Source: an uncultured Christensenellaceae bacterium
GTDB lineage: Bacteria; Bacillota; Clostridia; Christensenellales; Christensenellaceae
Length of the DNA: 64,000 nt
Reading direction: 5' to 3'
Assembly: GCA_964454685.1 (NCBI GenBank)
Contig: CAYVTZ010000010.1
Location: 11,776-75,775 of the forward strand
Part shown: in pieces, positions 1-18,377 of the stretch
Layout: each line of letters begins with the position of its first letter
How positions within the stretch are numbered: the stretch's first letter is position 1
Position numbers and translations under genes: made by a program
The notes under the pieces: generated by a model
Database searches by the model: none
What the model was told of the DNA's origin: nothing
The model's input: the letters and a program-made list of their open reading frames with translations, nothing else

Positions 1-805
1 TGGCACGCGCAATGCGATATTCGCCCGTCTCCATGTTTTGCAGCACCGCGCCCGCCGCTTTGCCGTCCTCGTCCAAAATCAGCTCCACTGCCGCAGTGAA
101 ATCCACCACGGGAATCTCGCGGTTCCACACCTCATCGCGCAGGACACGCATGATTTCCGCACCGGAATAATCCTTTGCAGCGTGCATCCGCTTGCGTGAG
201 GTACCGCCGCCGTGCGTGGTAACCATCGTGCCATCCGGCGCTTTGTCAAACATTACGCCAAAATCGTTCAGCCACTGAATTGCCGCAGGCCCCTGCGAAA
301 CCAGCTTTTTCAGCAAATCCGGCTTGTTTGCATAGTGTCCGCCACCCAACGCATCCAAATAGTGAATGGCGGGGGAATCATTTGCCTTATCCGCAGCCTG
401 AATGCCACCTTCTGCCATCATGGTGTTCGCGTCGCCCATGCGCAGCTTGGTCACAATCATCACGCTTGCGCCGCCATTGTGTGCTTCGATCGCTGCGGAA
501 GCACCCGCGCCGCCACCGCCGATCACCAGCACATCCACATCGTACGCCACATCCGAAAGGTCCAGATTCACGTCTGAAATGCGGCTGTTTGCCTGCAACA
601 ACGCTGCCAGCTCCACCGGCACTTTATCCCCTTTGTTGGGGCCAATTTTCAAATCTTCAAATCCCACCGTCCGGTAATCCGGGTGAAATTCGCGCAACAG
701 ATTTTCTTTTTCCTCGGCGCTCATGCGTTTTGGCTCCACGCCGATTCTCGCTTGTCTGCTCGCGTCTACCTTCGCAGCGGACGCAAGCATTTCTGGTGTA
801 AACAT
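1..805 (-). CDS. FAD flavoprotein of the fumarate reductase/succinate dehydrogenase type (FrdA/SdhA/TfrA-like). Only the N-terminal part is present; the gene runs off the left edge of the window.
   Basis: Absent from the ORF track because there is no stop in the window. My own minus-strand translation starts at ATG 805..803, with AGGAGG about 5 nt upstream: MFTPEMLASAAKVD...DVDVLVIGGGGAGASAAIEAHNGGASVMIVTKLRMGDANTMMAEGGIQAA. It has a GGGGAG Rossmann motif typical of SdhA/FrdA/NadB/AprA-type flavoproteins. About 75 aa precede the Rossmann motif. It starts 10 nt after the Fe-S subunit gene. Confidence 0.6.
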   Translation of the reverse strand, partial: MFTPEMLASAAKVDASRQARIGVEPKRMSAEEKENLLREFHPDYRTVGFEDLKIGPNKGDKVPVELAALLQANSRISDVNLDLSDVAYDVDVLVIGGGGAGASAAIEAHNGGASVMIVTKLRMGDANTMMAEGGIQAADKANDSPAIHYLDALGGGHYANKPDLLKKLVSQGPAAIQWLNDFGVMFDKAPDGTMVTTHGGGTSRKRMHAAKDYSGAEIMRVLRDEVWNREIPVVDFTAAVELILDEDGKAAGAVLQNMETGEYRIARA

Positions 806-814
806 AGGCCCCTC

Positions 815-1489
815 CTATTTCTCGATTTCTCTGTGGTTGTACAGCTCTTTCAGCTCTTCCAACGGCTTTCCTGCCACATCCTCCAAGAGCTGTGTGAAAT
901 CGCCCTTTTCGATGTCCGCCACACGCAACGCCAAATGCTCGGATTTGGGCGCGAGATATTTTCCCGTCAGCCGACGTGCAAGCAATGCCACCTGCGGATG
1001 CGTAATCTCGGCAGGGCAGCGTGCGCTGCATGCGCCGCACATCACACAGTCAAAAGACATTTCTGCGCAAGTCTCATATTGCGCGCGCTGTGCATGCGCA
1101 ATATACTGCATTACCTTCAAATCCTGCGTACAGGCCTTGGTGCAGGCATTACACCCGATGCACTTGTAGATTTCCGGATAAAGCTGCATCATGATCTGCT
1201 CATCCGCGCGCACCTCTTCCATATCATACAGCGGCTTCACCGTCGGGAAATACGGCAGTGTCGCCACATACATATCGTTTTCCACCGTAGTCTGGCATGC
1301 CAGGCAAAAGCGGATTGTGTTATCACCCTTGATGCGGTATATCGTGGTACACGCGCCACAAAATCCGTTACGGCAGCCACAGCCGCGCACCAGTTTATAT
1401 CCCGCGTATTCCATTGCCCCCATGATGGTGAGGCCTGATGGGACACTATACTGCTTCCCCATCAGAAAAACGTTTACCATTTGTTCCAT
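815..1489 (-). CDS. Iron-sulfur subunit of the FrdB/SdhB type (N-terminal 2Fe-2S plus two Cys-cluster motifs)
   Basis: 224 aa. CRNGFCGAC...CLAC matches the plant-type 2Fe-2S motif of SdhB/FrdB. CIGCNACTKAC and CVMCGACSARCP are ferredoxin-type cluster motifs. It lies immediately upstream of the flavoprotein gene. Confidence 0.6.
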   Translation of the reverse strand: MEQMVNVFLMGKQYSVPSGLTIMGAMEYAGYKLVRGCGCRNGFCGACTTIYRIKGDNTIRFCLACQTTVENDMYVATLPYFPTVKPLYDMEEVRADEQIMMQLYPEIYKCIGCNACTKACTQDLKVMQYIAHAQRAQYETCAEMSFDCVMCGACSARCPAEITHPQVALLARRLTGKYLAPKSEHLALRVADIEKGDFTQLLEDVAGKPLEELKELYNHREIEK

Positions 1490-1579
1490 TGTCTAACTCC
1501 TCTCAATCACAAATGTCCAAAATCTCTCATTCCTGCTCAAGCTGGATCGAAACCGCCGTTGCGTTTTCGGACAGCGTGA

Positions 1580-2413
1580 TTAATATTCATCCGGCAATTC
1601 ATCCAGCTCGTCGCACCGGAATACCGGACCGTCCTTACAAACATACTTGGAACCGATGTTGCAGCGTCCGCATTTGCCAACGCCGCATTTCATACGCAGC
1701 TCCATCGTCGTAAAAATCTGCGTTTTGTCAAAGCCCATCTCCATCAGCGCCGCCAGCGTAAATTTGATCATGACCGGAGGCCCGCAAACCAGCACCGTTT
1801 TATCCGTGGAAAAATTCAGCTTTTTAACGTATGCGGGTACAAACCCCACATGACCGTCCCAGTCCTCCTCGCCGCAGTCAATGGTCAAATGCACCTCGGT
1901 ATTTTCCGCACCCGGCCACACATTCGTAATGTCGTCATAGTCCACCAGATCCGCTTTGGTGCGCGATCCGTAAACGATGTCAACCTTGCCGTATTGCCCG
2001 CGCTTGTCCAACACGTAGTTGATTACGGAGCGCAGCGGCGCAAGTCCGATTCCGCCCGCAATAAACAGCAAATCTTTGCCCACCAGATCGGTTTCCACAG
2101 GGAACGCATTGCCATACGGCCCTCGAATGGTGATCTGCTGACCCACGTCCATTTGGTGCAGCCAATCCGTCAGGCAGCCACACTTTTTGATGCTGAACTC
2201 CATATATTTCGTGTTGGTAGGCGATGAGGTGATGGAAAACATCGCTTCTCCCACGCCGGGGATGGACAACATCGCGCACTGTCCGGGCATATGCTCAAAA
2301 CATTTCCCGCCGGAAAGCGCCTCCGCACGGAATGTCTTAACATCCGGCGTATCCTGTCTGATGTCTGTGATGACCCCCACATCGGGAATCAGCACGTCGT
2401 TTCTATTGCTCAT
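1580..2413 (-). CDS. FAD/NAD(P)H-binding oxidoreductase with a C-terminal 2Fe-2S (FlxA / AsrB / PyrK / sulfhydrogenase-gamma-like)
   Basis: I place the start at MSNRNDV (2413), in an ATGA overlap with the upstream stop. LFIAGGIGLAPL is an NAD-binding motif. The C-terminal CGVGKCGRCNIGSKYVCKDGPVF cluster motif is typical of the PyrK/AsrB family. Confidence 0.65.
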   Translation of the reverse strand: MSNRNDVLIPDVGVITDIRQDTPDVKTFRAEALSGGKCFEHMPGQCAMLSIPGVGEAMFSITSSPTNTKYMEFSIKKCGCLTDWLHQMDVGQQITIRGPYGNAFPVETDLVGKDLLFIAGGIGLAPLRSVINYVLDKRGQYGKVDIVYGSRTKADLVDYDDITNVWPGAENTEVHLTIDCGEEDWDGHVGFVPAYVKKLNFSTDKTVLVCGPPVMIKFTLAALMEMGFDKTQIFTTMELRMKCGVGKCGRCNIGSKYVCKDGPVFRCDELDELPDEY

Positions 2414-3432
2414 TTCGTGTCCCCCAACGTTCTGATTACTTTTGCGATATTCATGGAAATGGGGCATTTTGCAATGCACCGCCCGCATCCCACGCAGGAA
2501 TACATCCCGTCATTGTTGGCAGGGAAATATACCAGCTTGTGCATAAACCGCTGGCGGAACCGCTCCACCTGCGAGGTGCGCGGATTCCCGTGCGCCATGC
2601 GTGTAAAGTCGGAATACATGCAGGAATCCCAACAGCGATAGCGCTGCACATCCTTACCCGAATCAAAGTCCCGAATGTCATAGCATTGGCAGGTCGGGCA
2701 CACAAAGGTACAGGTGCCGCAGCCGATACACGCCTTGGAAAGCTCCGCCCACTTGGGAGAATCGAAAAACTTCTCCGTCGCCGTTCCGTCAAACTCAGTC
2801 AGATCAAGGTTCGAGAGCGGCAGCTTCTGCAAAATCTCTTTGATCTGTGCCTGCTGTGCCTCCACCGCTGCACCGTCCGCGTCCTCCAGCATAGGAAGCG
2901 ATGACAGCAGCAATTCGCCTTTTTCCGTGATTGCCTGCAAATACAGCGCATCCTGCGTCAGCCACGCGCTTACATCTCCTTTGGGCTGCGTCGCATCGAT
3001 CCCAAATGCCGTGCAAAAACAGGTTTCTTCCGGCTGCGCACATGCCAGCGCGATCACCACACCATGTTCGCGGCGCGATGCGTAGTAGCTGTCCACCGGC
3101 TCGCTTAAAAACACGCGATCCAGCACTTCCATCCCCATCACATCACATCCGCGCATCCCGAACACCACAAAGGGTGCGTCCGGCGCATCCGGCGCGCTTA
3201 CTTTGATCTCCTTGCCCTTCATTTCAAAGGACACCAGATCCTCACTCTGCGGAAAGAACAAATCCTTACCCGATTTCACCGTGTTCAGCACGTTTAAATT
3301 CACACGCGCTTCCGGCGTCCAAGCCGCAAAATCCACTTTGCCCTTTTGCGAAATAGGCAGATATAAGGTCTTGTCGCTTGCGATGGCTGCAAACAGCTCA
3401 TTCAAACGATCCCGCGCAATTTGTTTCATCAT
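2410..3432 (-). CDS. 4Fe-4S dicluster protein, FlxB / AsrA / sulfhydrogenase-beta-like
   Basis: I place the start at MMKQIARD (3432), overlapping the upstream stop (caATGAtg) with GGAGG upstream. Motifs are CIGCGTCTFVCPTCQC and CVGCGRCIAKCP. Confidence 0.6.
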   Translation of the reverse strand: MMKQIARDRLNELFAAIASDKTLYLPISQKGKVDFAAWTPEARVNLNVLNTVKSGKDLFFPQSEDLVSFEMKGKEIKVSAPDAPDAPFVVFGMRGCDVMGMEVLDRVFLSEPVDSYYASRREHGVVIALACAQPEETCFCTAFGIDATQPKGDVSAWLTQDALYLQAITEKGELLLSSLPMLEDADGAAVEAQQAQIKEILQKLPLSNLDLTEFDGTATEKFFDSPKWAELSKACIGCGTCTFVCPTCQCYDIRDFDSGKDVQRYRCWDSCMYSDFTRMAHGNPRTSQVERFRQRFMHKLVYFPANNDGMYSCVGCGRCIAKCPISMNIAKVIRTLGDTK

Positions 3433-4406
3433 TGCGCACCTCCTTTGATCTGGCCCGGCTCCGTGTCGCCTTCTGTAAAGCTGACCAGCGGCCACGGCGA
3501 TTCGTCGTCCGAGCCGGCCTGATAATCTCCGTAGTTCTCGTTGATATCCTTGATAAACTTGCGGTTCAAAAGGTGCAGCGGAATCCCCTGCGGACAAACG
3601 CGAGAGCATTCGCCACAGTCTGTGCACCGCCCCGCCACATGAAATGCGCGGATGATGTGGAACATATTTTCTTCAAAGGTGTCCACATTCGCTTTCGCCG
3701 ACACGCCGGAATCGTCGTTGTCAAAGATGCACTTCAGACAGGAGCACGCAGGGCACGCATTGCGGCAGGCATTACATCGAATGCACTTACTCAGCTCCCC
3801 GCGCCAGAACGCAAAGCGCTCGTCCGGCGTCATCGCCTCCAGCTTCTTCACCATTGCAAAGCGATCATGTTTGCGCAGCTCAAAGGGTTGAGTGTCTGCG
3901 ATCGTATCATCACTGACCATGAATTCTTCGCTCTTGCAGCATAAGCAGCGCTCGATCAACACATCTTTCAGCGCGCACTCACGGTCGCCGTACAGTGTTT
4001 CCAGCTTGAGCATACCGTCCACTTCCTGCGCCGAAAGTACGCCTTTAATGCCTTTTGCGGCAAGCTTGCCCATATCCACATTGCCGTGGCTGGGCACACC
4101 CAGCACATAAACCTTTTCCCGGTCAATGCGGTGTTCCTTCACCAGTTGGTTAAAACTGTATGTGTCGCAAGGCTTCAGCAGCGCCAAGATGCGCCCTTCC
4201 TTCTTGCTTTCCTCAATCAAATATTTGCTCAGGTTTGCGCCGCAAAAGCAGTCGTAAACCAAATTGTCCAATGTATCCGCCGTAAACACTGCCGGTGTGG
4301 TATCATAGCAAAACTCTCCGCCCTGCCAGCCCAACACGCGGTTGACTGTGCCGTCCGCAAGCAGTGCGCGCGCTTTTTGAACGATTGCGTCTCTGATTAC
4401 TTGCAT
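3429..4406 (-). CDS. Fe-S protein, FlxC-like (FrhB/FdhB-type N-terminus plus a 4Fe-4S dicluster)
   Basis: 325 aa. Motifs are CIRCNACRNACPACSC and CTDCGECSRVCP. There is a 10-nt overlap with the mvhD stop. Confidence 0.55.
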   Translation of the reverse strand: MQVIRDAIVQKARALLADGTVNRVLGWQGGEFCYDTTPAVFTADTLDNLVYDCFCGANLSKYLIEESKKEGRILALLKPCDTYSFNQLVKEHRIDREKVYVLGVPSHGNVDMGKLAAKGIKGVLSAQEVDGMLKLETLYGDRECALKDVLIERCLCCKSEEFMVSDDTIADTQPFELRKHDRFAMVKKLEAMTPDERFAFWRGELSKCIRCNACRNACPACSCLKCIFDNDDSGVSAKANVDTFEENMFHIIRAFHVAGRCTDCGECSRVCPQGIPLHLLNRKFIKDINENYGDYQAGSDDESPWPLVSFTEGDTEPGQIKGGAQ

Positions 4407-4840
4407 CGCAAATCCTCCAATCTCTTGTTCTCTCCCAGCTCGCTCACCGTCTGCACAAATTCATTCATCACCTGCGCAAACTTCTGACCTTCCGCCGCAG
4501 AAACCCATTCCACACGCATTCTGCCGCGTTCGATGCCCATGTATTCCAGCATGCTTTGCATCAGCGCAAAGCGGCGGCGGGCATAATAGTTACCCGTGGA
4601 ATAATGGCAATCACCCGGATGGCAACCGTTTACAATCACACCATCCGCGCCACGTTGGAATGCGCGTAAAATAAACAGCGGATTCACCCTGCACGAGCAA
4701 GGCACACGGATAATCTTTACGTTCGCGGGATAATCCAATCTGCTCGTCCCGGCAAGGTCGGCGCCCGCATAGCTGCACCAGTTGCAGCAAAAGGAAACGA
4801 TCAGCGGCGTATATCCGCCCTGTTTGGTCAATTCCTGCAT
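4397..4840 (-). CDS. mvhD: MvhD/FlxD-type protein (methyl-viologen-reducing hydrogenase delta subunit family)
   Basis: I place the start at MQELTKQGG (4840), with GGAGGTG 8 nt upstream. SFCCNWCSYAGADLAG...RVPCSCRV...NGCHPGDCHY is the characteristic MvhD Cys pattern. It overlaps the hdrA stop. Confidence 0.8.
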   Translation of the reverse strand: MQELTKQGGYTPLIVSFCCNWCSYAGADLAGTSRLDYPANVKIIRVPCSCRVNPLFILRAFQRGADGVIVNGCHPGDCHYSTGNYYARRRFALMQSMLEYMGIERGRMRVEWVSAAEGQKFAQVMNEFVQTVSELGENKRLEDLRCK

Positions 4841-6825
4841 ATCGCGTCCACCTCCGCCATAATTTGTTTGTTGGTAAAGCCCTTCAAATCCATCGCGCCG
4901 GACGGGCACGTCACCGTGCACGCGCCGCAGCCTTGGCAAACCGCCTCGTTTACCTGCGCCACCCGCCGCACCTCGCGCTTGCCATGGTCGTTGACTTCGG
5001 TTTCAGTATACGTGATCGCGCCGTATGGGCAAACATTCGCACATGCGCTGCAGCCATTGCACAGCAGGCAATCCGATCCCGCCACACACGGGTTGCATTT
5101 GAGTTTGTCTTTGGCAAGCAGACCAATCACTTTTGCCGCCGCCGCGCCCGCCTGCGCCACGGTCTCCGGAATGTCCTTCGGCCCTTGGCAGATGCCGGAC
5201 AGGAACACGCCCGCCGTGGGACTTTCCACCGGACGCAGCTTGGGGTGTGCCTCCGTGAAGAAATCGTTGGTGTCCATGCTCGCCGTGAGCATCGTTGCCA
5301 GCGGCCTTGCCGATGGGTCAGGCTCCACCGCCGTTGCCAGCACCACCAAATCCGCATCAATGTTCATTTGCTTGTTGCTGATGAGATCGGAAGCCTGCAC
5401 ATGCAGCACTCCGTCCTCCTCTGCCACCTTACCCACCATGCCTTTGACATAGTTCACGCCGTATTGCTCCACCGCGCGGCGTTGGAATTCATCAAAGTTC
5501 TTGCCGGGGGTGCGCACATCAATATAGAATACATACACCTGCGTGTCGGGATATTTTTCCCGAATCATCATCGCGTGTTTCGCCGTATACATGCAGCAGA
5601 TCTTAGAACAGTAGGATTTTCCGCAGCCCTCCGATTCACGCGAGCCCACGCACTGCACAAACACAATGGTATGCGGGTGTTCCTTATCCGAAGGCCGCAG
5701 CAACACGCCCTCCGTCGGTCCCGCGGCATTCATCAGGCGCTCCAGCTCCAGTGATGTGATCACATCCGGGCACTGCGCATACTGAAATTCGTCATAATCC
5801 GCAAGATCGATGGTTTGAAATCCTGTCGCCGCAATGATCGCGCCGTATTGTTTGGTCACGATTTCGTCCTCCTGCTCAAAGCGAATCGCCTTGGAGGGAC
5901 AAATCTTCTCACATACACCGCATTTACCCGTTTTATAGTGGGTGCAATGCTCGTGATCGATGACCGGCACATTGGGAATCGCCTGCGCAAAGGGAATGTA
6001 AATCGCACCGCGATTTTTAAGTCCCATATTAAATTCGCTCTTCGCCTTCTTGCTGGGGCATTTCTCCGCACAAACGCCGCAGCCTGTACACGCTTCCTCG
6101 TCCACATTACGCGCCTTTTTGCGAATGTCCACCGTGAAGTTGCCCACAAATCCCGAAATCTTATCCACCTCGGAATAGGTATACAGATTTATTTTTTCAT
6201 GCTGCGCCGCATCCACCATCTTGGGGGTCAGAATGCACGCCGCACAGTCCAGCGTGGGAAATGTCTTGTCCAGTTGCGCCATCTTACCGCCGATGGTCGG
6301 CAGTTTCTCCACAATGTCCACTTCATAGCCCGCATCCGCAATGTCCAGTGCGGTTTGAATGCCGGCAATGCCGCCGCCAATCACAAGCGCGCGCTTCACC
6401 ACAGGGCTCTCACCCGCAGTCAACGGCGCATTCAGGTTCAGCTTGGCAATGGCAGCTTTGGCGAGGATTATCGCCTTTTCCGTGCCTTCCTGCTTGTCCT
6501 TATGAATCCACGAGCACTGCTCACGAATGTTTGCGATTTCCACCATATACGGGTTCAACCCCGCCGCTTGTGCTGTTCTGCGGAAGGTTGCCTCGTGCAT
6601 ACGCGGCGAACACGCACAAACCACGATTCCCGTCAGATTGTGTTCCTTCACCGCCTCGATGATGCGTGATTGGCCCACCTCCGAGCACATATATTGGTAT
6701 TCCATCGCATAGACCACGCCCGGCTCACTCTTCACCGCCTGCGCGACTGCTTCTACATCCACTGTTGCCGCAATATTACTGCCACACCAGCAGACGAAAA
6801 CTCCGATTCTTTGCAAAATAATCAC
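4828..6825 (-). CDS. hdrA: Heterodisulfide reductase subunit A (FAD, multiple 4Fe-4S)
   Basis: 665 aa. The N-terminal Cys domain reads GVFVCWCGSNIA...VVCACSPRMH. The FAD motif is VIGGGIAGIQTALDIA. Inserted ferredoxin motifs are CTGCGVCAEKCP and CGVCEKICP, and C-terminal motifs are CNGCSACANVCP and CQGCGACTVTCP. The ORF-track start at 6825 is GTG, only 2 nt from AAGGAG. The TTG at 6816 has better spacing, so the start is uncertain by 9 nt. Confidence 0.85.
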   Translation of the reverse strand: MIILQRIGVFVCWCGSNIAATVDVEAVAQAVKSEPGVVYAMEYQYMCSEVGQSRIIEAVKEHNLTGIVVCACSPRMHEATFRRTAQAAGLNPYMVEIANIREQCSWIHKDKQEGTEKAIILAKAAIAKLNLNAPLTAGESPVVKRALVIGGGIAGIQTALDIADAGYEVDIVEKLPTIGGKMAQLDKTFPTLDCAACILTPKMVDAAQHEKINLYTYSEVDKISGFVGNFTVDIRKKARNVDEEACTGCGVCAEKCPSKKAKSEFNMGLKNRGAIYIPFAQAIPNVPVIDHEHCTHYKTGKCGVCEKICPSKAIRFEQEDEIVTKQYGAIIAATGFQTIDLADYDEFQYAQCPDVITSLELERLMNAAGPTEGVLLRPSDKEHPHTIVFVQCVGSRESEGCGKSYCSKICCMYTAKHAMMIREKYPDTQVYVFYIDVRTPGKNFDEFQRRAVEQYGVNYVKGMVGKVAEEDGVLHVQASDLISNKQMNIDADLVVLATAVEPDPSARPLATMLTASMDTNDFFTEAHPKLRPVESPTAGVFLSGICQGPKDIPETVAQAGAAAAKVIGLLAKDKLKCNPCVAGSDCLLCNGCSACANVCPYGAITYTETEVNDHGKREVRRVAQVNEAVCQGCGACTVTCPSGAMDLKGFTNKQIMAEVDAICRN

Positions 6826-6977
6826 TTCTCCTTATACGATACAAGCTCCCTTGCAAGCAGGCGCTTGCGATCCGCGTTCATTACGGCGCGCATGCTTGTG
6901 TTTCCCGCACGTCTGCGCAAAGCTTTGATGATCTCTGCGCCGCGTGCGCCGCACCTGCGCTCCATCTCCGGCTTCAC
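6822..6977 (-). CDS. Candidate unannotated 51-aa ORF in the hdrC-hdrA spacer
   Basis: Below the ORF-track length cut-off. It begins at GTG 6977 (GAGGG 7 nt upstream), with an in-frame ATG at 6965. Translation: MKPEMERRCGARGAEIIKALRRRAGNTSMRAVMNADRKRLLARELVSYKEK. The stop TGA (6824..6822) overlaps the hdrA GTG as GTGA. Third-position G+C counted by hand is clearly higher in this frame than in the competing 61-aa frame. Confidence 0.3.
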   Translation of the reverse strand: MKPEMERRCGARGAEIIKALRRRAGNTSMRAVMNADRKRLLARELVSYKEK

Positions 6978-7007
6978 AGACAAGCCCTCGGCTGCCCCAG
7001 ATCGGGA

Positions 7008-7403
7008 TTATTTCCAATACTTCCGCAATGCGCTGATAATCGCCTGCTGTGGCAATTCGCCGTCTACAAGCGGCGGCACATCCTGTGCGTTCATGTGGTC
7101 TCCGCCTTTTTCACGGATCACCATCAATCGCACTGCCTCAATCAGCTTTGCGGGCTCCACATTACGCGGACAGCGTTCCATACAGGCAAAGCAGGAAAGG
7201 CAACGCCATAGCGATTCCGATTCCATCAGCTCGCGGATGCGCCCGTCCTTCACCATGACCACAAATTGATGCGGATGATATTCCATCTCGTCATATGCAG
7301 GGCAGGTGCCGGAGCATTTTCCGCACACCATACACTTTTTAGGATCTACCCCGCTCACGCGCAATACGGTTTCTTTGAGTTCATTTTGGGAAAGATTGCT
7401 CAC
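7008..7403 (-). CDS. hdrC: Heterodisulfide reductase subunit C (2x 4Fe-4S)
   Basis: 131 aa. Motifs are CMVCGKCSGTCP and CLSCFACMERCP. There is a 4-nt overlap with hdrB. Confidence 0.75.
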   Translation of the reverse strand: MSNLSQNELKETVLRVSGVDPKKCMVCGKCSGTCPAYDEMEYHPHQFVVMVKDGRIRELMESESLWRCLSCFACMERCPRNVEPAKLIEAVRLMVIREKGGDHMNAQDVPPLVDGELPQQAIISALRKYWK

Positions 7404-8200
7404 TTTGCGCCTCCTTCCGCCACGCCCAGCGCTTCTGCCAGCAGCTTCGTGAAGTATACGACTTCCACGCCGCTTTCTGCGCTGTTTTCTTCTAAATTAT
7501 AGCGGCACAGCGGACATGCCGTCACCACCATCTGTGCGCCTTTTTTAGATGCCGAAGCAAGCGCCTGTTTGCACAGACGCGCCGTGTCCTCTTTGTTTTC
7601 CATCACCACATATCCGCCGCAGCATTCATTGCGGTAGGGATAAATGACCGGCTCTCCGCCCAAAGCACGAATGAAATCCTCCATGATTGTGGGGTTCTCC
7701 GGCTTGTCAAACTGCATCTCTTTGCCCGGACGCAGCAGCAGGCAGCCGTAGTATGCGCCGATTTTTTTCCCTGTCAGCGGGTGCACCACGCGCTTTGCAA
7801 TTTCATCGAAGCCTACTTTATCGCGCAGCACTTCAAAATAGTGCAGCACCTGCGTCTCACCGGCATACGGTTGTTCCAACTGTAAATACTGATTGACCTT
7901 GGTGCGCATTTCCTCGTTTTTCTGCATGTCGTTGTTCACGCGCTTGATTACGTGATGGCATGCCGAACACAACGTCACCAGCTCCCCACGCTCCGCGCTC
8001 TGCGCCAGTGTGCGCACCGCCGAAAGCTTGGTTGCATATTCGTCTGTCGCCATGGGATACACCGCGCCGCAACACTGCCATTCTTCCAGCTCGCACAAAT
8101 TCACGCCCAACGCCTGTGCCGCGCTGCGCGCATAAACGTCCAGCTCTTTCGCCTGCGTTTTGAGCGTACAGCCCGGATAATAGTTCAAGTCCATAGACAT
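7400..8200 (-). CDS. hdrB: Heterodisulfide reductase subunit B (two CCG domains)
   Basis: 266 aa. It starts MSMDLNYYPGC. The first CCG motif is EEWQCCGAVYP...CSACHH and the second is NECCGGY...TACPLCRYN. Confidence 0.8.
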   Translation of the reverse strand: MSMDLNYYPGCTLKTQAKELDVYARSAAQALGVNLCELEEWQCCGAVYPMATDEYATKLSAVRTLAQSAERGELVTLCSACHHVIKRVNNDMQKNEEMRTKVNQYLQLEQPYAGETQVLHYFEVLRDKVGFDEIAKRVVHPLTGKKIGAYYGCLLLRPGKEMQFDKPENPTIMEDFIRALGGEPVIYPYRNECCGGYVVMENKEDTARLCKQALASASKKGAQMVVTACPLCRYNLEENSAESGVEVVYFTKLLAEALGVAEGGAK

Positions 8201-8215
8201 ACTCCCTTGTCCTGT

Positions 8216-8246
8216 GCTCCGGCATCAAACAGCTTGATGCCGGAGC
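8216..8246 (-). promoter_or_regulatory. Perfect 13-bp stem-loop between fumC and hdrB, with no U-tract
   Basis: GCTCCGGCATCAA (8216-8228), loop ACAGC, then TTGATGCCGGAGC (8234-8246). It sits 9 nt after the fumC stop and directly before the hdrB RBS. Confidence 0.4.
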
Positions 8247-8254
8247 GCTCTCGT

Positions 8255-9619
8255 TTAAATCATCTCTTCGGGGTGGAACACCTCGTCGAACTTTTCTTCG
8301 GTCAGGAATCCCAGCGATATGCAGGCCTCCTTGAGTGAAATGTTCTCCTTGTGCGCCTTCTTCGCTGTTTTGGCAGCATTGTCATACCCGATGTACGGGT
8401 TCAGCGCCGTCACCAACATCAAAGAATTATGCAGGTTGTGTTCCATCTTTTCGCGGTTTGCCTCAATGCCCACCGCACAGTTTTTGTTGAAGGACGCGAT
8501 GCCGTCCGCCAGCAACCGTACCGACTGCAAGAAATTGTAAATGCACACCGGCATGAACACATTCAGTTCAAAGTTGCCCTGCGATGCCGCCATGCCCACC
8601 GCCACATCGTTTGCCATCACCTGTACGGCAATCATCGTCAGCGATTCGCACTGCGTCGGATTCACCTTGCCCGGCATAATAGAACTACCCGGCTCATTTT
8701 CCGGAATGAAAATCTCTCCAAGGCCGCAGCGCGGGCCGCTTGACAGCCAACGCACGTCATTTGCAATCTTCATGAGGTTCGCTGCCAGCGCTTTCAGCGC
8801 ACCATGTGCGAAAACCAGTTCGTCCTTGGAGGTCAGCGCATGGAATTTGTTCTCCGCCGTCACAAAGTCTTTGTCGGTCAGCACGCCCACTTGCTTTGCA
8901 ATTTCTTCGGCGAATCCTGCCGGCGCATTCAGCCCCGTGCCCACAGCCGTGCCGCCCAGTGCCAATTCCTTCAATCCGCCCAGCGAATCTTTCAGCATCT
9001 GTTTGGTCTTTTCGATCATGTTGCGCCAGCCGCTCACTTCTTGCGAAAACGCAATGGGCGTCGCGTCCTGAAGGTGTGTGCGTCCGCTCTTCACGATGCC
9101 TTCGCTCTCCTTCTCAATACGCGCGAATGTGGCAATCAACTCATCCATCTGCGGAATCAGCGCATCCTCAATGCCAATCACCGCCGCAATGTGCATCGCG
9201 GTGGGGAAGGTATCGTTGGAGCTTTGCGATTTGTTTACATCGTCGTTCGGGTGCAAGATCGCCTGTCCCGCAATCTCGTTGCCGCGATTTGCGATCACTT
9301 CATTGGCATTCATGTTGGACTGCGTGCCGCTGCCCGTCTGCCAAACCACCAGCGGGAAATGATCGTTGAGTTTTCCGGCGATCACCTCGTCACACGCCGC
9401 GCTGATCGCATTTTTCTTGGCTTCGTCCAGCTTGCCTAAATTGCAGTTTGCAATCGCCGCCGCCTTCTTTAAAATGCCAAACGCATGTGTGATCTCGCGG
9501 GGCATCACTTCCCCGCCGATTTCAAAATTTTGGAGGCTGCGCTGTGTCTGTGCCGCCCAATATCTGTCCGCGGGAACCTGCATTTCCCCCATCGAATCGC
9601 GTTCAATCCGGTATTCCAT
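8255..9619 (-). CDS. fumC: Class II fumarate hydratase
   Basis: The signature [15 protein letters not shown] matches FumC; AspA has PVxPE at this point. The N-terminus reads [29 protein letters not shown] prefer the ATG at 9619 (GGAGG upstream) over the track start at 9640. Confidence 0.85.
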
Positions 9620-9632
9620 CGCATTACCTCCC

Positions 9633-10580
9633 TCAAACATTCACTTGCTTGATTACATTTTTCAGCACTTCTGCGCTGTGATGCAACTTCGCCACTTCAT
9701 CGTCCGTCATGCGCGGCATGACGTTGCCGCAAATACCTTTGGGGCCAAAGATGAAGGGAATAGACAGGCAAACGTCCTCGATTCCATATTCTCCATGCAG
9801 CATGGAGGAAACCGTCATCACCCGGTTGGAGCTGCCAAACAGGCAGTCCACGATGTGGCATACCGAGATTGCAATGGCGTAATAGGTCGCACCCTTGCGC
9901 TCAATGATCTTGCCACCCGAAGTGCGGATATAGTTTTCGATCTCATCGGGATTCAGCTTCGCTTTCACACGTCCGTTGAAGTTAAAGCCACCCTGCTCGT
10001 CTAGGATTTCCACGCTGCCGACGCGCGCGGTGGACCACGGCACAAAAGAGCTGTCTCCGTGTTCGCCCATGACATAAGCATGGATGCTCTTCTGGCTGAT
10101 ATCCAAATACTCCGCTAAACGCGAACGCAGGCGCGCGGTATCCAAAATGGTACCGGAGCCAATGATGCGGCTTTCCGGCAGTCCGGAAACCTTGCAGAAG
10201 GTGTATGTCAGCACGTCTACAGGATTACTCACCAGCAGATACACCGCATCCGGTGCATATTTTACGATTTCCGGCGCAATGGACTTGATGACGTCCACGT
10301 TGGTCTGCGCCAAATCAATGCGCGATTGTCCTACTTTTCTCGGGATGCCCGATGTGATGATGACAACATCCGAATCCTGCGCATCTTGATAGGTTCCTGC
10401 ATAGATCTGGATGGGGGAGCAAAACGGCGTGCCCTGACGGATATCCATTGCTTCGCCCAGTGCTTTTTCGGTGTTTACGTCGATCATCACGATCTCAGAC
10501 GCAAGCCCGTTTACCGCCATGGTATAGGTGATGGTAGCCCCGACGCTGCCCGCGCCGATGATGGTTACTTTTCTGCTCAT
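9633..10580 (-). CDS. mdh: NAD-dependent malate dehydrogenase of the LDH-like family
   Basis: [10 protein letters not shown] is the Rossmann motif. The substrate loop reads [11 protein letters not shown], with Arg where LDHs have Gln (AGANQKPGETR in B. subtilis LDH). GEHGDS is LDH-like. Co-location with fumC supports MDH. Confidence 0.65.
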
Positions 10581-10672: not shown

Positions 10673-11689
10673 TTAAGCCTCGCTGCGCTGCGCGATCGCG
10701 CGCTTGACCTGCTCGGTGAAGGCCGGAACGATCTTCATCACATCCCCCACCACGCCATAGTCCGCCACCTCAAAGATGGGCGCATATTCGTCCTTATTGA
10801 TGGCAATGATTACATCGGAATCCTCCATGCCCGCCAAATGCTGAATCGCGCCGGAAATTCCGCAAGCAATATACAGATTGGGGCGCACGGTCTTGCCGGT
10901 CTGTCCCACCTGACGATCCTTGTCTACCCAGCCTGCATCCACGCAAGCACGTGAGGACGCAACGGTGCCGCCAAATGCCTCCGCCAAATCTTCCAAAAGT
11001 TTGAAGTTTTCGGGGCATCCCATGCCGCGTCCGCCGGACACCAGCACTTTTGCGTCTTGAATGTCCATCTTGTCGCTCACTTTTTTGATGATGTCCAAAA
11101 TCTGTACATTCACGCACTCTTTGGGCAGGTTCACCGGGAATTTCTCCACCTTTGCGTGGGACTCGATGGGGTGGATGCGCTGCATCACGCCGGGGCGCAC
11201 CGTCGCCATCTGCGGACGGAATTCCGGGCAAATGATGGTCGCCATGATGTTGCCGCCAAACGCAGGACGCGTCATGCGCAAATTCTTACTTTCCTCGTCC
11301 ACCTCAAGTCCGGTGCAGTCCGCCGTCAAGCCGGTGTGCACACGCGCAGAAACGCGAGGCGCAAGGTCTCGCCCGATTGCGGACGCACCATACAGCACGA
11401 TTTCGGGTTTCTTTTCTTCCACAATCTGTGTGAGCACATGGGTGTACGGCTCCGTCATGTATACTTCCAGTTCCGGTGCATCCGCAAGGATTACATTGTC
11501 CGCACCATAGCGTCCGAGTTTTTCCGCCAAAGCGTCAATGTTATGTCCCAGCACCACTGCCGTCACTTCCGTGTCCAGCGCTTTGGCAAGCTCCGTCGCC
11601 TTACTCACCAACTCCAGCGCAACGCCGGAGAGTTTTCCGTCTTCTTGTTGGGCAAAAACGAATACGCCCTTATAATCCTGAATATTCAT
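10673..11689 (-). CDS. etfA: Electron transfer flavoprotein alpha subunit
   Basis: 338 aa. The EtfA layout is typical, and the order bcd-etfB-etfA matches clostridial butyryl-CoA dehydrogenase/Etf operons. Confidence 0.9.
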   Translation of the reverse strand: MNIQDYKGVFVFAQQEDGKLSGVALELVSKATELAKALDTEVTAVVLGHNIDALAEKLGRYGADNVILADAPELEVYMTEPYTHVLTQIVEEKKPEIVLYGASAIGRDLAPRVSARVHTGLTADCTGLEVDEESKNLRMTRPAFGGNIMATIICPEFRPQMATVRPGVMQRIHPIESHAKVEKFPVNLPKECVNVQILDIIKKVSDKMDIQDAKVLVSGGRGMGCPENFKLLEDLAEAFGGTVASSRACVDAGWVDKDRQVGQTGKTVRPNLYIACGISGAIQHLAGMEDSDVIIAINKDEYAPIFEVADYGVVGDVMKIVPAFTEQVKRAIAQRSEA

Positions 11690-11702
11690 GCAACAAACCT
11701 CC

Positions 11703-12485
11703 TCAAATAATGAACTTGCTGCGGAGGCTGTCCATCAAAAACTCAACCGATTCCGCTATGTCCGTGTTGACCACCGTGCCCGCCGATTTCAGCGGCTTGG
11801 TGAAGGATTTGAACACGCGCGTCGGCGAACCCTTGAGTCCGATGTTCGTGCGATCCACGTCCAAATCTTCCAGCGTCCAAATGAGGACTTCCTTCTCACG
11901 ATATGCGTCCCAAACACCCGCGGGTGTCATGTAACGCGGCATATTCAGCTCCGCCAGCGCCGTAATCAGGCAGGGAAGCTGCGCTTTGATGATGTGGTAG
12001 CGATCCTCATATTGGCGCTTGACCACAATGCTCTTGTCCTGAATTTCGATCTCCTCCGCATAGCTGATGTTCGCCAGCTTCAGATGCTCCGCAATCTGCG
12101 GCCCCACCTGTGCGGTGTCGCCGTCAATCGCCTGTCTGCCTGTGATGATGAGGTCATACGGCAGTTTTTTGATGGCGGATGCCAGCGTGGAAGATGTCGC
12201 CCACGTGTCTGCGCCGCCAAATGCTCTGTCCGTCACCAAAATCGCCTCGTCTGCGCCCATCGCAAGCGCTTCACGCAGTGCGAGGTCAGCCTGCGGCGGC
12301 CCCATGGAAATCACGGTGACCTTTGCGCCGTGCTTATCCTTTAAACGCAGCGCCGCTTCCAGTCCCGCTTTGTCGTCGGGGTTGATGATGGAGGGTACTC
12401 CCTCACGAATGAGCGTTCCTGTTTTCGGATCCAAACGCACCTCGTTGGTATCCGGAACTTGTTTGATACATACAACAATATTCAC
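11703..12485 (-). CDS. etfB: Electron transfer flavoprotein beta subunit
   Basis: 260 aa. MNIVVCIKQVPDT... is the canonical EtfB N-terminus. Confidence 0.9.
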   Translation of the reverse strand: MNIVVCIKQVPDTNEVRLDPKTGTLIREGVPSIINPDDKAGLEAALRLKDKHGAKVTVISMGPPQADLALREALAMGADEAILVTDRAFGGADTWATSSTLASAIKKLPYDLIITGRQAIDGDTAQVGPQIAEHLKLANISYAEEIEIQDKSIVVKRQYEDRYHIIKAQLPCLITALAELNMPRYMTPAGVWDAYREKEVLIWTLEDLDVDRTNIGLKGSPTRVFKSFTKPLKSAGTVVNTDIAESVEFLMDSLRSKFII

Positions 12486-12501
12486 TGAGTTGTCCCTCCT
12501 G

Positions 12502-13641
12502 TTATTTCAGCAAGTCAGCAGAAATAACCATCCGCTGCACTTCGCTGGTGCCTTCGTAGATTTCCGTGATCTTCGCGTCGCGCATCATGCGCTCCACCGG
12601 ATATTCCCGCGTGTAGCCGTAACCGCCCATCAGCTGTACGCATTTGGTGGTCACTGCCATCGCGGTTTCCGCCGCATAAAGCTTCGCGGTTGCGGATTCC
12701 ACGGAATACCGATCCTTGGTGTCCTTTGCAATCGCCGCACGATAAACCAGCAGTTGTGCCGCATCAATGCGCGCTTTGAGGTCTGCCAGCGCAAACTGCG
12801 TGTTCTGGAAGTTTGCCAAAGGCTTGCCAAACTGCTTGCGCTCTTTCACATAGGCAACCGTCTCGTTGAACGCGCCTTCCGCAATACCCAGCGCCTGCGC
12901 CGCAATCCCGATGCGCCCGCCGTCCAGCGTCGCCATCGCGATTTTAAAGCCCTGACCCTCTTTGCCCAGCATGTTTTCCTTGGGTACGATGCAGTTTTCC
13001 ATAATCAGCTCTGCCGTCGCACTGCCGCGGATACCCATTTTGCGCTCTTTTTTGCCTACCGAGAATCCGGGGAAATCCTTTTCCACAATGAATGCGGAAA
13101 TGCCGCGTGTACCCTGGGATTTATCCGTCATCGCAAAGATGATGTAGATGTCCGCATAGCCCGCGTTTGTAATGAAGATTTTGCTGCCGCTGATGATATA
13201 ATTGTCACCCTCCAGCACCGCCTTCGTCTGCTGTCCGGAAGCATCCGTGCCCGCGCCCGCTTCGGTCAGTCCAAACGCGCCGATCTTTTCGCCCTTTGCC
13301 AGCGGAACCAGATATTTCTGCTTCTGTTCTTCCGTGCCAAACTGCTTGATTGGGTTTGCGCCCAGCGAGGTATGCGCGGAAACGATTACGCCCGTGGTCG
13401 CGCAGACCTTGGAAAGCTCCTCCACGCACATCGCATACGCCAGCGTATCGCAACCCTGTCCACCGTATTCTTTGGGGAAGGGTATGCCCAAAAAGCCGTA
13501 TTGTTTCATTTTTTCTACCGTCTCTGCCGGAAAGCGTTCTTCTTCGTCCACTTCCTCCGCAAGCGGTTTCACTTCCTGCTCGGCAAACGCACGATACAGC
13601 GTTTGCAGCATTTGATGTTCTTTGCTTAATGTGAAATCCAT
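12502..13641 (-). CDS. bcd: Short-chain acyl-CoA (butyryl-CoA) dehydrogenase
   Basis: 379 aa acyl-CoA dehydrogenase fold (GLTEAGAGTDA, QLMGGYGYTREYPVERMMRDAKITEIYEGTSEVQ), directly upstream of etfBA. Confidence 0.85.
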   Translation of the reverse strand: MDFTLSKEHQMLQTLYRAFAEQEVKPLAEEVDEEERFPAETVEKMKQYGFLGIPFPKEYGGQGCDTLAYAMCVEELSKVCATTGVIVSAHTSLGANPIKQFGTEEQKQKYLVPLAKGEKIGAFGLTEAGAGTDASGQQTKAVLEGDNYIISGSKIFITNAGYADIYIIFAMTDKSQGTRGISAFIVEKDFPGFSVGKKERKMGIRGSATAELIMENCIVPKENMLGKEGQGFKIAMATLDGGRIGIAAQALGIAEGAFNETVAYVKERKQFGKPLANFQNTQFALADLKARIDAAQLLVYRAAIAKDTKDRYSVESATAKLYAAETAMAVTTKCVQLMGGYGYTREYPVERMMRDAKITEIYEGTSEVQRMVISADLLK

Positions 13642-13748
13642 ATCTTTCTCCTAAAATATTATTGTGCGGTGTGGGTTGCCCCATCTCGCGTTTTTTATAT
13701 GACACAGCACGCAAGGACTTGCCCCGCGCGCCGTCACGTGAACTCTCG

Positions 13749-15107
13749 TTATGCCCAGATCTCGTCGTCCGTCGGCACCTTTTTGTTCGGATCGAACAAC
13801 GCGATGCGCGAAATGTTGATCAGATGCGTGTAGTTGAGGTTCTCGGAGATACTGTTGTTACCCCAGGAACCGCAGCCCAGCGTCGTTGTGGGCGCCAGAC
13901 CGTTCGTCAGCGCGCCGCCCGCCGTTGTCGAGGAAGGCTGGTTGACCACAATACGGCTAACCGGCATCTTCTCTCCCACCATGCGGATGTGCTCCTGATC
14001 ATTCGAGTGAATCGCGCAGGTGTGCCCTTTGCCTTCGTAGTCAAGGTTCTCGTATGCAATGTGCATCGCGTCCTCGAAGGTGTCATAGGGGATTGCCACC
14101 ATGAAGGGGCACATTTTTTCTTTGCACAGCACGTCCGCACGGCCAAAGCCACGGCCTTTAAGAATCACCACTTTGGTATCCTCCGGCACTGCAATGCCTG
14201 CAAGCCCTGCAACCTTCTGCACGCTCTGTCCAACCACATCCTTGCCGATCACCCCGCCGGGGAACAGCGTCTGCGCAAATTTTTCCACCTGTGCCGGATC
14301 GTCGATATAGTATGCGCCGTTTGCTTTAAACGCGTCAATTACCTTGTCAAATTCATCCTTGGGCGCAATCACGCTCTGCTCGCCCGAGCAGATGATACCG
14401 TTGTCGAATTTACGACCTGCGATCACTTTCGCCGCAGCGTCATTGTAGTCAATGCCCTTGTCGATGATGACCTGCACATTGCCGGGGCCAACGCCGAGTG
14501 CCGGCTTGCCGCTGGAATATGCGGATTTCACCATTGCGCCGCCGCCTGTTGCCACCACAACGTCCGCCGCACCCATCAATTCCTGCGTGGTATCCAGCGA
14601 GGGAGTTTCGATGGTCTGGATCAGATCCTCCGGCAACCCAAGCGCCTTGAGCTCCGCGCGGAACAAATCTACCACGTATTTGTTGAGCGCCGCCGTGCGC
14701 GGATGCGGCGCAACCACGATGGCATTCTTCCCTTTCAGTGCAAACATTGCGTTGCACATGGGGGTCACAACCGGATTGGTCACCGGCGTTACCGCGCCTA
14801 CAACACCCTTGGGTTTCGCTACTTTGATGATGTTGTTTTCTTTGTCCTCTTCAATGATACCGTAGGACTTTTTGCCTTTCAGGCTGTTCCAGATGCACTT
14901 GGACTTGCCTTTGCACTTTGCCACTTTGTCCTCATAGACGCCCATGCCGGATTCGTCTACCGCACGGCGCGAAAGCTCTTCCGCACGATCATAGACCACC
15001 TTGCCAATCGCCCGCACCGCAGCATCCACTTGCTCCTGCGTCGCGTTTTTCTCGTATTCCGCCTGCGCCACCCGTGCGCGTTCGATCAATTCTGACACTG
15101 TTGCCAT
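13749..15107 (-). CDS. sucD: CoA-acylating succinate-semialdehyde dehydrogenase (succinyl-CoA reductase)
   Basis: Long stretches match my memory of Clostridium kluyveri SucD: GMGVYEDKVAKC, KPKGVVGAVTPVTNPVVTPMCNAM, GPGNVQVI, CKEKMCP and TLGCGSWGNNSISENL. I prefer the start at MATVSELIERA (15107), with AGGAGG 10 nt upstream. Confidence 0.85.
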   Translation of the reverse strand: MATVSELIERARVAQAEYEKNATQEQVDAAVRAIGKVVYDRAEELSRRAVDESGMGVYEDKVAKCKGKSKCIWNSLKGKKSYGIIEEDKENNIIKVAKPKGVVGAVTPVTNPVVTPMCNAMFALKGKNAIVVAPHPRTAALNKYVVDLFRAELKALGLPEDLIQTIETPSLDTTQELMGAADVVVATGGGAMVKSAYSSGKPALGVGPGNVQVIIDKGIDYNDAAAKVIAGRKFDNGIICSGEQSVIAPKDEFDKVIDAFKANGAYYIDDPAQVEKFAQTLFPGGVIGKDVVGQSVQKVAGLAGIAVPEDTKVVILKGRGFGRADVLCKEKMCPFMVAIPYDTFEDAMHIAYENLDYEGKGHTCAIHSNDQEHIRMVGEKMPVSRIVVNQPSSTTAGGALTNGLAPTTTLGCGSWGNNSISENLNYTHLINISRIALFDPNKKVPTDDEIWA

Positions 15108-15265
15108 TCTTTCAAATCCTCCTGCAAACTTTTTTATTTTAAGATCAAACATCTTTGTTTAAAACTTCACAATACTATTATAGGCTCTTTCCCGCGCGAT
15201 TCAAAGTTATGTAAGTAAAAAAACTTGTCAAACTTTTGATTGCAGTAGAAAATTATGTCCGGCGG

Positions 15266-15273
15266 TGTATAAT
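15266..15273 (+). promoter_or_regulatory. Candidate extended -10 (TGTATAAT) for cat1 in the sucD/cat1 divergent region
   Basis: TGTATAAT lies about 115 nt upstream of the cat1 ATG. No good -35 is present. Confidence 0.3.
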
Positions 15274-15386
15274 ATAAGAAATAGTGAACAAAATTTCTTT
15301 TCATACGCAGTGCAGTTTGATAGATTCCGGACAACACGGGTCTGATTTCGGCGGCTGCGCATCAAAGATGACGGAGGTTTCCAAAT

Positions 15387-16850: not shown

Positions 16851-16867
16851 TTGCAGATTCCATCCAA

Positions 16868-16893
16868 CCGCCTCAGATTCTGAGGCGGTTTTT
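16868..16893 (+). terminator. Rho-independent terminator after cat1
   Basis: CCGCCTCAG-ATT-CTGAGGCGG followed by TTTTT. Confidence 0.8.
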
Positions 16894-18166: not shown

Positions 18167-18172
18167 CCGCAT

Positions 18173-18376: not shown

Positions 18377-18377
18377 T

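Follow-up and report, generated by a model that had tools for sequence, protein, structure and literature searches.

The question raised by this locus is whether a soluble fumarate reductase can be coupled to the reduction of ferredoxin through Hdr and Flx subunits. The locus occupies nucleotides (nt) 1-10580 of a 64,000-nt stretch of DNA from an uncultured Christensenellaceae bacterium (contig CAYVTZ010000010.1; the whole stretch is referred to as the window). The original prediction had read it as a possible cytoplasmic fumarate reductase dependent on reduced nicotinamide adenine dinucleotide (NADH), in which fumarate reduction drives ferredoxin reduction through HdrA. This interpretation is supported by the present analysis and is the best one available. 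On balance, the locus is considered somewhat likely to encode an Hdr/Flx-linked bifurcating soluble fumarate reductase, which would catalyze 2 NADH + fumarate + Fd(ox) -> 2 NAD+ + succinate + Fd(red) (Fd, ferredoxin). The idea is not new: the window operon is orthologous to one of Pseudoclostridium thermosuccinogenes, for which the hypothesis is already in print. New here are the breadth of the distribution of the operon, the anatomy of its flavoprotein (an invariant Asn, an extension and a missing C-terminal domain) and evidence for fumarate as the substrate from the displacement of one fumarase by another.

Eleven co-directional open reading frames (ORFs) could be identified on the minus strand of nt 1-10580, as had been predicted, and their identities are backed by domain searches. 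In the direction of transcription, the genes (lengths in amino acids, aa) and two of their spacers are:

10580..9633, minus strand: mdh, malate dehydrogenase (MDH) of the lactate dehydrogenase (LDH) family, 315 aa (Pfam Ldh_1_N and Ldh_1_C)
9619..8255, minus strand: fumC, class II fumarate hydratase, 454 aa (TIGR00979, 740 bits against a cut-off of 665)
8214..8248, minus strand: GC-rich 15-bp hairpin in the fumC-hdrB spacer (perfect stem, -25.6 kcal/mol)
8200..7400, minus strand: hdrB-like gene, 266 aa (two CCG domains, PF02754 twice)
7403..7008, minus strand: hdrC-like gene, 131 aa (Fer4_8 and related families; two [4Fe-4S] motifs)
6826..7007, minus strand: hdrC-hdrA spacer, 182 nt, long for this type of operon
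6825..4828, minus strand: hdrA, putative bifurcating flavoprotein, 665 aa (676 bits to 5ODC_A over the full length)
4840..4397, minus strand: mvhD/flxD-like [2Fe-2S] adaptor, 147 aa (PF02662, 192 bits)
4406..3429, minus strand: flxC-like Fe-S protein, 325 aa (Fer4 dicluster at residues 204-275)
3432..2410, minus strand: flxB-like Fe-S protein, 340 aa (PF17179 Fer4_22, 108 bits)
2413..1580, minus strand: flxA-like, predicted NAD(P)H-oxidizing flavoprotein with a [2Fe-2S] site, 277 aa (FAD_binding_6, NAD_binding_1 and DHODB_Fe-S_bind)
1489..815, minus strand: Fe-S partner of the flavoprotein (frdB), 224 aa (Fer2_4 and Fer4_7/8/9)
805..<1, minus strand: FrdA/TfrA-like flavoprotein (frdA), N-terminal 268 aa, cut by the window edge (PF00890 from residue 91)

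In the proposed reductive branch, oxaloacetate would be converted to malate by Mdh, to fumarate by FumC and finally to succinate by a soluble assembly of nine subunits. FlxA, carrying flavin adenine dinucleotide (FAD) and a [2Fe-2S] cluster, would oxidize NADH, and the electrons would be handed on by FlxB, FlxC and the MvhD-like FlxD until they reach the HdrA-bound FAD. There the pair would be split, one electron going uphill via the ferredoxin-type clusters of HdrA to ferredoxin and the other downhill via HdrC and HdrB to the subunit with one [2Fe-2S] and two [4Fe-4S] clusters. From this Fe-S subunit it would reach the non-covalently bound FAD of the FrdA-like subunit, where fumarate would be reduced. 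From standard potentials (E0') of +33 mV (fumarate), -320 mV (NADH) and about -450 mV (ferredoxin), the net reaction has a free energy of about -40 kJ/mol. E0' is +33 mV for fumarate and -10 mV for crotonyl-CoA (CoA, coenzyme A; PMC5861303), and the energy yield of the proposed reaction is comparable to that of Bcd-Etf. In both cases ferredoxin reduction by NADH would be pulled by a high-potential acceptor with a C=C bond, although the protein families are unrelated and Bcd-Etf bifurcates at the Etf flavin; a bcd-etfBA set is encoded immediately upstream of the operon in the window.

Whether fumarate is the acceptor depends on the flavoprotein, of which 268 residues lie in the window. Full-length homologues (530-545 aa) were read from loci of more than 70 species, and the Christensenella proteins, which are 86% identical to the window fragment, stand in for the complete protein. 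A first search with the 268-aa query had returned only partial homologues; an in-frame stop or an element breaking the assemblies was considered and dropped, as full-length genes exist. In the 538-aa Christensenella homologue, residues 1-90 have no Pfam match, PF00890 covers residues 91-471 (233 bits) and 67 residues follow, in which the C-terminal helical domain PF02910 could not be detected. An extension before the Rossmann motif had thus been noticed correctly and is conserved, but it comprises about 90 residues and not about 75. Its columns are 53-68% identical over 76 homologues, and it is confidently folded in the AlphaFold model of the Christensenella minuta orthologue.

The placement of the flavoprotein relative to TfrA, NadB and AprA was based on hidden Markov model (HMM) scores and on a ranking of folds. 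The best NCBIfam model for the full-length Christensenella homologue is TfrA with 328 bits, followed by SdhA/FrdA with 266-272 and NadB with 264 bits. The match covers positions 6-409 of 546 of the TfrA equivalog NF004900 and does not reach its cut-off of 718 bits. The AlphaFold2 (AF2) model of the C. minuta orthologue has a predicted template modeling score (pTM) of 0.82, and Foldseek ranks E. coli FrdA first (E 1e-25, template modeling score (TM) 0.60), then E. coli SdhA and Mycobacterium smegmatis Sdh1, with NadB at rank 49. AprA is absent both from the 25 listed NCBIfam families and from the 50 best matches in the fold ranking. When aligned to 1kf6_A, the equivalents of E. coli FrdA H232, T244, E245, R287, H355 and R390 are invariant in all 76 homologues. 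Taken together, the best HMM (TfrA), the best fold (FrdA) and the invariant fumarate-site residues agree with the prediction of an FrdA/TfrA-type protein as opposed to AprA or NadB.

At the position of the histidine that binds FAD covalently in E. coli FrdA (His44), an Asn is found in 76 of 76 homologues (Asn127 in the window, in the motif GDANTMMAEGG). Non-covalent FAD is a hallmark of one-way fumarate reductases, such as His44 variants of E. coli FrdA and the soluble flavocytochrome c3, and the His44 variants reportedly keep fumarate reduction and lose succinate oxidation. The invariant Asn therefore fits a one-way fumarate reductase. The protein shares with E. coli FrdABCD (1KF6) and SdhABCD (1NEK) the fold of FAD-binding and capping domains and the identical catalytic His, Arg, Thr and Glu residues, while these enzymes differ in having C/D anchors, the covalent-FAD histidine and PF02910. 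Like TfrAB of Methanothermobacter (NF004900 and NF004898), it belongs to a soluble system without an anchor, but TfrA lacks the N-terminal extension and has the C-terminal domain. The flavoprotein thus appears to be FrdA/SdhA-like but atypical, in its Asn, its extension and its missing C-terminal domain.

Gene linkage was studied in the 53 best-matching loci with enough upstream DNA, which are from different species, and in the 41 loci with both flanks. A fumarase is encoded in 40 of these 41 loci, as a class II enzyme upstream in 17 and as a class I enzyme downstream in 23, and never as both. The exchange of class II fumarase upstream of hdrB for class I fumarase downstream of frdA was observed in loci among L001-L081 and is a case of non-orthologous displacement. 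Two unrelated fumarases that replace each other beside the same block of genes are strong contextual evidence for fumarate as the substrate. Linkage was also found for mdh (31 loci) and for a putative exporter (32 loci), the latter after frdA as an Asp-Al_Ex/AAEx-family protein in 26 and as a small membrane protein of 93 aa in six. HMMs are ambiguous for Mdh, as NCBIfam LDH models and the MDH subfamily PRK06223 all score above cut-off. At the position that decides specificity, occupied by Gln102 in LDH, the window protein has Arg (motif GIPRK), as do 40 of 40 cluster-linked homologues, from which we infer an enzyme specific for oxaloacetate and malate.

This linkage bears on the suggestion that the flavoprotein and its Fe-S partner act on another substrate, for instance on L-aspartate, the substrate of NadB, or on a different alpha,beta-unsaturated acid, with mdh and fumC only loosely related to them. 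Such a substrate would be compatible with a full-length homologue that stays below every equivalog cut-off, with its atypical termini and with a NadB score nearly level with those of SdhA/FrdA. It is nevertheless very unlikely in view of the fumarases of two unrelated classes that substitute for each other, the linked Mdh with its Arg102-type residue, the AAEx-family transporters after the flavoprotein gene and the FrdA and SdhA folds; NadB, moreover, has no Fe-S partner.

No transmembrane helices were predicted by hydropathy in any of the eleven proteins. Neither among them nor after the flavoprotein gene in the relatives examined, where transporters, fumarase or soluble proteins are encoded, could an FrdC/D- or SdhC/D-type anchor be identified, in agreement with the absence of an FrdC/D anchor noted before. 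A 240-aa ORF after frdA in Christensenella was considered as an anchor and rejected: its product is soluble, without hydrophobic segments, and carries an HxHxDH-like motif.

The nine genes hdrB-hdrC-hdrA-mvhD-flxC-flxB-flxA-frdB-frdA are collinear on one strand in 52 of the 53 loci and in the window, with median gaps of -13 to +20 nt between neighbors in the 52 loci. Such an arrangement is far beyond chance, and the co-conservation of the block, mostly as overlapping genes, bears out what had been proposed. When one genome per species was scanned, carriers of the flavoprotein were found in at least 559 species, mostly Christensenellales, Oscillospiraceae, Lachnospiraceae and other Clostridia, together with single metagenome-assembled genomes (MAGs) of Synergistaceae and Planctomycetota. 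Cultured carriers include C. minuta, C. tenuis, C. intestinihominis, Porcincola intestinalis and Sporofaciens musculi. The Synergistaceae and Planctomycetota MAGs contain the full or a partial operon (L015 and L027) with 72% flavoprotein identity, reflecting either horizontal transfer or a binning error.

In the 'succinate operon' of P. thermosuccinogenes (CDQ83_RS03365-RS03315), fumC is joined by seven Flx-Hdr genes, two genes for a fumarate reductase and one for a small hypothetical protein (Koendjbiharie et al. 2020, PMC7282089). That this operon encodes a bifurcating NADH:fumarate/ferredoxin reductase was suggested in 2019 in a preprint by Koendjbiharie and van Kranenburg (doi 10.20944/preprints201912.0288.v1), as cited in PMC7282089, where this proposal of NADH-dependent fumarate reduction coupled to ferredoxin reduction is used. 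In locus L083, whose gene lengths agree with the coordinates published in PMC7282089, the ten shared genes fumC-hdrB-hdrC-hdrA-mvhD-flxC-flxB-flxA-frdB-frdA occur in an order identical to that of the window. The proteins of all ten are 54-83% identical to those of the window over nearly their full length (tblastn), with fumC at 83%, and the FrdB homologue P0192, named as from P. thermosuccinogenes, is 75% identical to the Fe-S protein of the window. The two operons are thus orthologous. They differ in their surroundings: in the window mdh lies directly upstream and adjoins a succinate-to-butyryl-CoA gene set, whereas the P. thermosuccinogenes operon is preceded by a LysR regulator and followed by a 93-aa membrane protein. 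A hydrophobic membrane protein of 93-105 aa after frdA was observed in L083 (12404-12685) and seven other loci, at the position taken by an Asp-Al_Ex/AAEx transporter in most species. In the published RNA-seq data (PMC7282089), no other gene of the operon is expressed as highly as the one for this small protein. The 93-aa ORF of P. thermosuccinogenes was tried as a DsrC-like thiol carrier and rejected, since its sequence, judged by eye, resembles that of a small hydrophobic membrane protein.

The same data bear on the suggestion that two independent enzymes share one operon, Flx-Hdr with an acceptor of its own and an FrdAB that draws its electrons from elsewhere, for example from ferredoxin. 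Support for separate enzymes could be seen in the locus with frdBA and no adjacent hdr/flx genes (L068) and in the flxA-frdB junction, which never overlaps (median gap 20 nt, 90 nt in the window). Yet the nine genes stay collinear across Christensenellales, Oscillospiraceae and Lachnospiraceae, and even in the Synergistaceae and Planctomycetota MAGs, and the orthologous operon genes of P. thermosuccinogenes change together in RNA-seq, about 3- to 4-fold (PMC7282089), a co-regulation in line with the original prediction. Independence of the two enzymes is therefore regarded as highly improbable.

HdrA aligns to the bifurcating HdrA of Methanothermococcus/M. wolfeii (5odc_A) with 676 bits, residues 6-664 against 5-651, and 28 cysteines, those of four CxxCxxCxxxC motifs among them, show no variation across 53 sequences. 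In HdrA, HdrB, HdrC, MvhD, FlxA, FlxB, FlxC and FrdB, all cysteines that bind clusters are invariant in 53-70 species. The MvhD/FlxD-like protein matches the VhuD model (139 bits), and FlxC has relatives in the C-terminal portions of FdhB from Fdh-Hdr complexes (9t1s_M, 8rvu_E and 7bkb_E; 78-85 bits). On the donor side, FlxB matches the beta subunit of sulfhydrogenase I (9nez_B, 147 bits) and the AsrA, HydB and ShyB models (150-159 bits), and FlxA the HydG, AsrB and PRK08345 models (192-226 bits).

The methanogen complexes MvhAGD-HdrABC and Fdh-MvhD-HdrABC (5ODC, 7BKB, 8RVU) contain close homologues of HdrA, HdrB, HdrC and MvhD and are a structural precedent for bifurcation at the HdrA flavin; FlxC resembles the part of the donor-side subunit FdhB that docks in the Fdh-MvhD-Hdr complexes. 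They differ from the window system in their hydrogenase or formate dehydrogenase, which is replaced by an NAD(P)H-type FlxAB, and in their acceptor, the disulfide of coenzymes M and B (CoM-S-S-CoB), where fumarate is proposed here. FlxABCD-HdrABC of Desulfovibrio vulgaris (Ramos et al. 2015, as cited in PMC7282089 and PMC5861303) shares the seven subunit types FlxA-D and HdrA-C, compared here at the level of domains, and NADH-driven bifurcation to ferredoxin is proposed for both. The order is reversed in the window (hdrBCA-flxDCBA, against the flxABCD-hdrABC of the literature name and description), and the window operon carries the flavoprotein/Fe-S pair where the acceptor proposed for Desulfovibrio is a DsrC disulfide.

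The same subunits could instead form a non-bifurcating soluble NADH:fumarate reductase in which Hdr/Flx serves as a long Fe-S wire, or, in a variant, one with reduced ferredoxin as a second donor. Bifurcation cannot be read from sequence alone, and electron transfer from NADH to fumarate is strongly exergonic by itself. A mere wire would, however, leave unexplained why HdrA retains its full bifurcating architecture with both ferredoxin-type domains and all their cysteines, and why nine subunits are kept in hundreds of species although far simpler soluble fumarate reductases exist and would suffice. According to an earlier study recounted in PMC7282089, P. thermosuccinogenes no longer formed succinate when the H2 pressure was high, which points to a coupling with ferredoxin. 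An enzyme of the wire type is thus regarded as improbable.

The Fe-S partner of the flavoprotein contains an invariant [2Fe-2S] motif, C39-x4-C44-x2-C47...C65, which matches the SdhB-style pattern CxxxxCxxC...C of the E. coli enzymes, and two invariant CxxCxxCxxxC motifs (C110/113/116/120 and C148/151/154/158). Such a pair of four-cysteine motifs differs from the [4Fe-4S] and [3Fe-4S] clusters of E. coli Frd and Sdh. The protein misses the SdhB models PF13085 (18.3 bits, cut-off 27) and TIGR00384 (28.8 bits, cut-off 88). The designation 'FrdB-like' therefore holds for the cofactor motifs, but with the models failed and the matches in the Protein Data Bank (PDB) generic, membership in the SdhB/FrdB family is not established.

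HdrB contains two complete CCG motifs, with Cys 11, 43, 44, 78, 81, 153, 193, 194, 229 and 232 invariant in 54 sequences. It aligns to HdrB 8rvv_B with 117 bits, and its best NCBIfam match is MFR SdhE (142 bits), followed by HdrB TIGR03288 (132 bits), both below cut-off. HdrC matches TIGR03290 with 67 bits and has eight invariant cysteines. FrdB, HdrC and HdrB match consecutive stretches of the TfrB model (19-101, 133-220 and 263-487), with 28-36 bits against a cut-off of 385, and together look like a split TfrB: what is one polypeptide in Methanothermobacter, an Fe-S domain with two CCG domains, is divided over three proteins in the window operon. In TfrB a CCG domain is wired straight to the flavoprotein, and the match gives a precedent for direct wiring between HdrB and FrdB. 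It is tentatively suggested, as a possibility below even odds, that all nine proteins form one soluble supercomplex, in which the non-cubane clusters of HdrB would relay electrons to the FrdB-like subunit without a thiol, making it a split, bifurcating thiol:fumarate reductase. Its proposed donor, NADH, differs from the CoM-SH and CoB-SH used by Tfr.

Alternatively, a thiol could shuttle between the two halves. Like the function suggested for FlxABCD-HdrABC of Desulfovibrio, Flx-Hdr would then be a bifurcating NADH:ferredoxin/disulfide reductase that reduces the disulfide of a small protein or of a low-molecular-weight compound, and the thiols would feed fumarate reduction in the manner of the methanogen thiol:fumarate reductase. 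All ten CCG cysteines are invariant, the best HMM of the flavoprotein is TfrA, and in PMC7282089 Flx-Hdr is described as passing electrons to 'ferredoxin (and thiols)'. Against this stands an Fe-S partner that has no CCG domain for thiol oxidation. Neither a DsrC-like nor another small cysteine-rich carrier is conserved in the loci, and no DsrC-like gene was found among the larger window ORFs scanned, a scan that left some ORFs aside and included no DsrC-specific search. CoM and CoB are not known from Clostridia. CCG proteins are also plain partners of SdhAB in type E enzymes, and SdhE is the best NCBIfam match of HdrB. A thiol shuttle is accordingly judged unlikely.

Several observations weigh against the bifurcating fumarate reductase favored here. 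Intact CCG motifs of HdrB form the disulfide-reducing site in methanogens, so that a thiol/disulfide intermediate would be possible. Searches of PDB sequences and profiles with the Fe-S partner gave only a generic dicluster domain, and its alignment is shallow; its AF2 model is poor, with a predicted local distance difference test score (pLDDT) of 58.7, and Foldseek matches only the N-terminal [2Fe-2S] beta-grasp (TM <=0.30). The catalytic residues of the flavoprotein lie beyond the 268 aa in the window and were read from the 86%-identical homologues. The full-length Christensenella protein stays below the cut-offs of all NCBIfam models and also has no PF02910, and its substrate specificity is therefore deduced from active-site residues and gene context. 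Locus L068 (9282-11632) contains frdBA with a large helicase gene upstream in place of hdr/flx genes. Finally, neither a purification nor an assay of such a complex came up in searches of the literature, in line with what had been stated in the original prediction, nor did biochemical data for any member of this reductase family.

The arrangement of the genes was also analyzed. The start/stop overlaps given in the original prediction (7400/7403, 4828/4840, 4397/4406, 3429/3432 and 2410/2413) are correct with starts that bear a ribosome-binding site, and frdB and frdA are separated by 9 nt and not 10. The majority of the junctions overlap, which suggests translational coupling; hdrC has a GTG start overlapping the hdrB stop, and between the mvhD start and the hdrA end the overlap is 13 nt. 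For fumC, the ATG at 9619 with a ribosome-binding site was taken as the start, within an ORF that opens at 9640. Three spacers had not been mentioned before: 54 nt between fumC and hdrB, 90 nt between flxA and frdB, and the 182 nt between hdrC and hdrA. The hairpin in the first (8214-8248) has no T tract on the coding strand and may be an element of mRNA processing or stability that uncouples mdh-fumC from the downstream genes.

The hdrC-hdrA gap has a median of 12.5 nt in the 52 loci and is long only in the window (182) and in Christensenella (426 and 593), where internally repeated sequence was observed in the spacers (L002 3576-4003 and L003 3415-4009). The window spacer has a strong predicted fold of -68.7 kcal/mol, a figure without a shuffle control. 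It has neither a repeat elsewhere in the window nor an Rfam match, and an Rfam search of the operon returned nothing. A 48-codon ORF in this spacer, whose stop overlaps the hdrA start, was rejected: the longer spacers of Christensenella do not conserve it, and a search for similar DNA elsewhere gave no match. The spacer is therefore treated as probably non-coding.

Upstream of mdh, the following features were identified:

11689..10673, minus strand: etfA
12485..11703, minus strand: etfB
13641..12502, minus strand: acyl-CoA dehydrogenase
15152..13749, minus strand: CoA-acylating-type aldehyde dehydrogenase
15387..16850, plus strand: Cat1-like CoA transferase
17014-17634, plus strand: beta-class carbonic anhydrase
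18378-19046, minus strand: ORF of 222 aa without Pfam match, inside the pathway gene cluster
20821..19709, minus strand: Fe-alcohol dehydrogenase
22211..20907, minus strand: second CoA transferase
24463..23015, minus strand: HpaB-family, 4-hydroxybutyryl-CoA dehydratase-like protein
33268-34125, minus strand: ORF of 285 aa without Pfam match
40353-40426: tRNA

By family-level matches, the genes at 10673-24463 would encode a route from succinate via succinyl-CoA, succinate semialdehyde, 4-hydroxybutyrate and crotonyl-CoA to butyryl-CoA. Together with the operon they suggest an oxaloacetate-to-butyrate route with two ferredoxin-reducing steps. No etfA was found beside the operon in the other loci fetched, of which several flanks, including two of Christensenella, end at or just upstream of mdh, and the linkage to succinate-to-butyrate genes may be lineage-specific. 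The carbonic anhydrase at 17014-17634 lies between succinate-forming and succinate-consuming genes and would fit a CO2-fixing carboxylation that feeds oxaloacetate. At 24683-29657 the minus strand carries genes for an HTH_11-domain response regulator, for two [FeFe]-hydrogenase-like proteins, of which one contains a 'Putative Fe-S cluster' domain, and for a SpoIIE-type phosphatase. Adjoining the pathway genes, they resemble a regulatory module that senses hydrogen or the redox state. The region 40353-64000, after the tRNA, contains genes for sugar use, encoding an FGGY kinase, a Zn-alcohol dehydrogenase, an ATP-binding cassette (ABC) sugar transporter, a LacI regulator and an L-fucose isomerase, and is unrelated to the operon.

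The operon is not restricted to one thermophile but is common in gut bacteria, and among its carriers C. minuta, a cultured gut bacterium, is tractable enough for decisive biochemical work. Should the chemistry proposed here be correct, it would add another class to flavin-based electron bifurcation, one in which fumarate serves as the high-potential acceptor, and would explain how fermenters without quinones gain energy from the formation of succinate. If the nine proteins do form a supercomplex, it would, together with Rnf or Ech, provide a fumarate respiration for quinone- and cytochrome-free Clostridia, and could be a major overlooked route to succinate in gut Christensenellales, Oscillospiraceae and Lachnospiraceae, leading onward to butyrate in the organism of the window.

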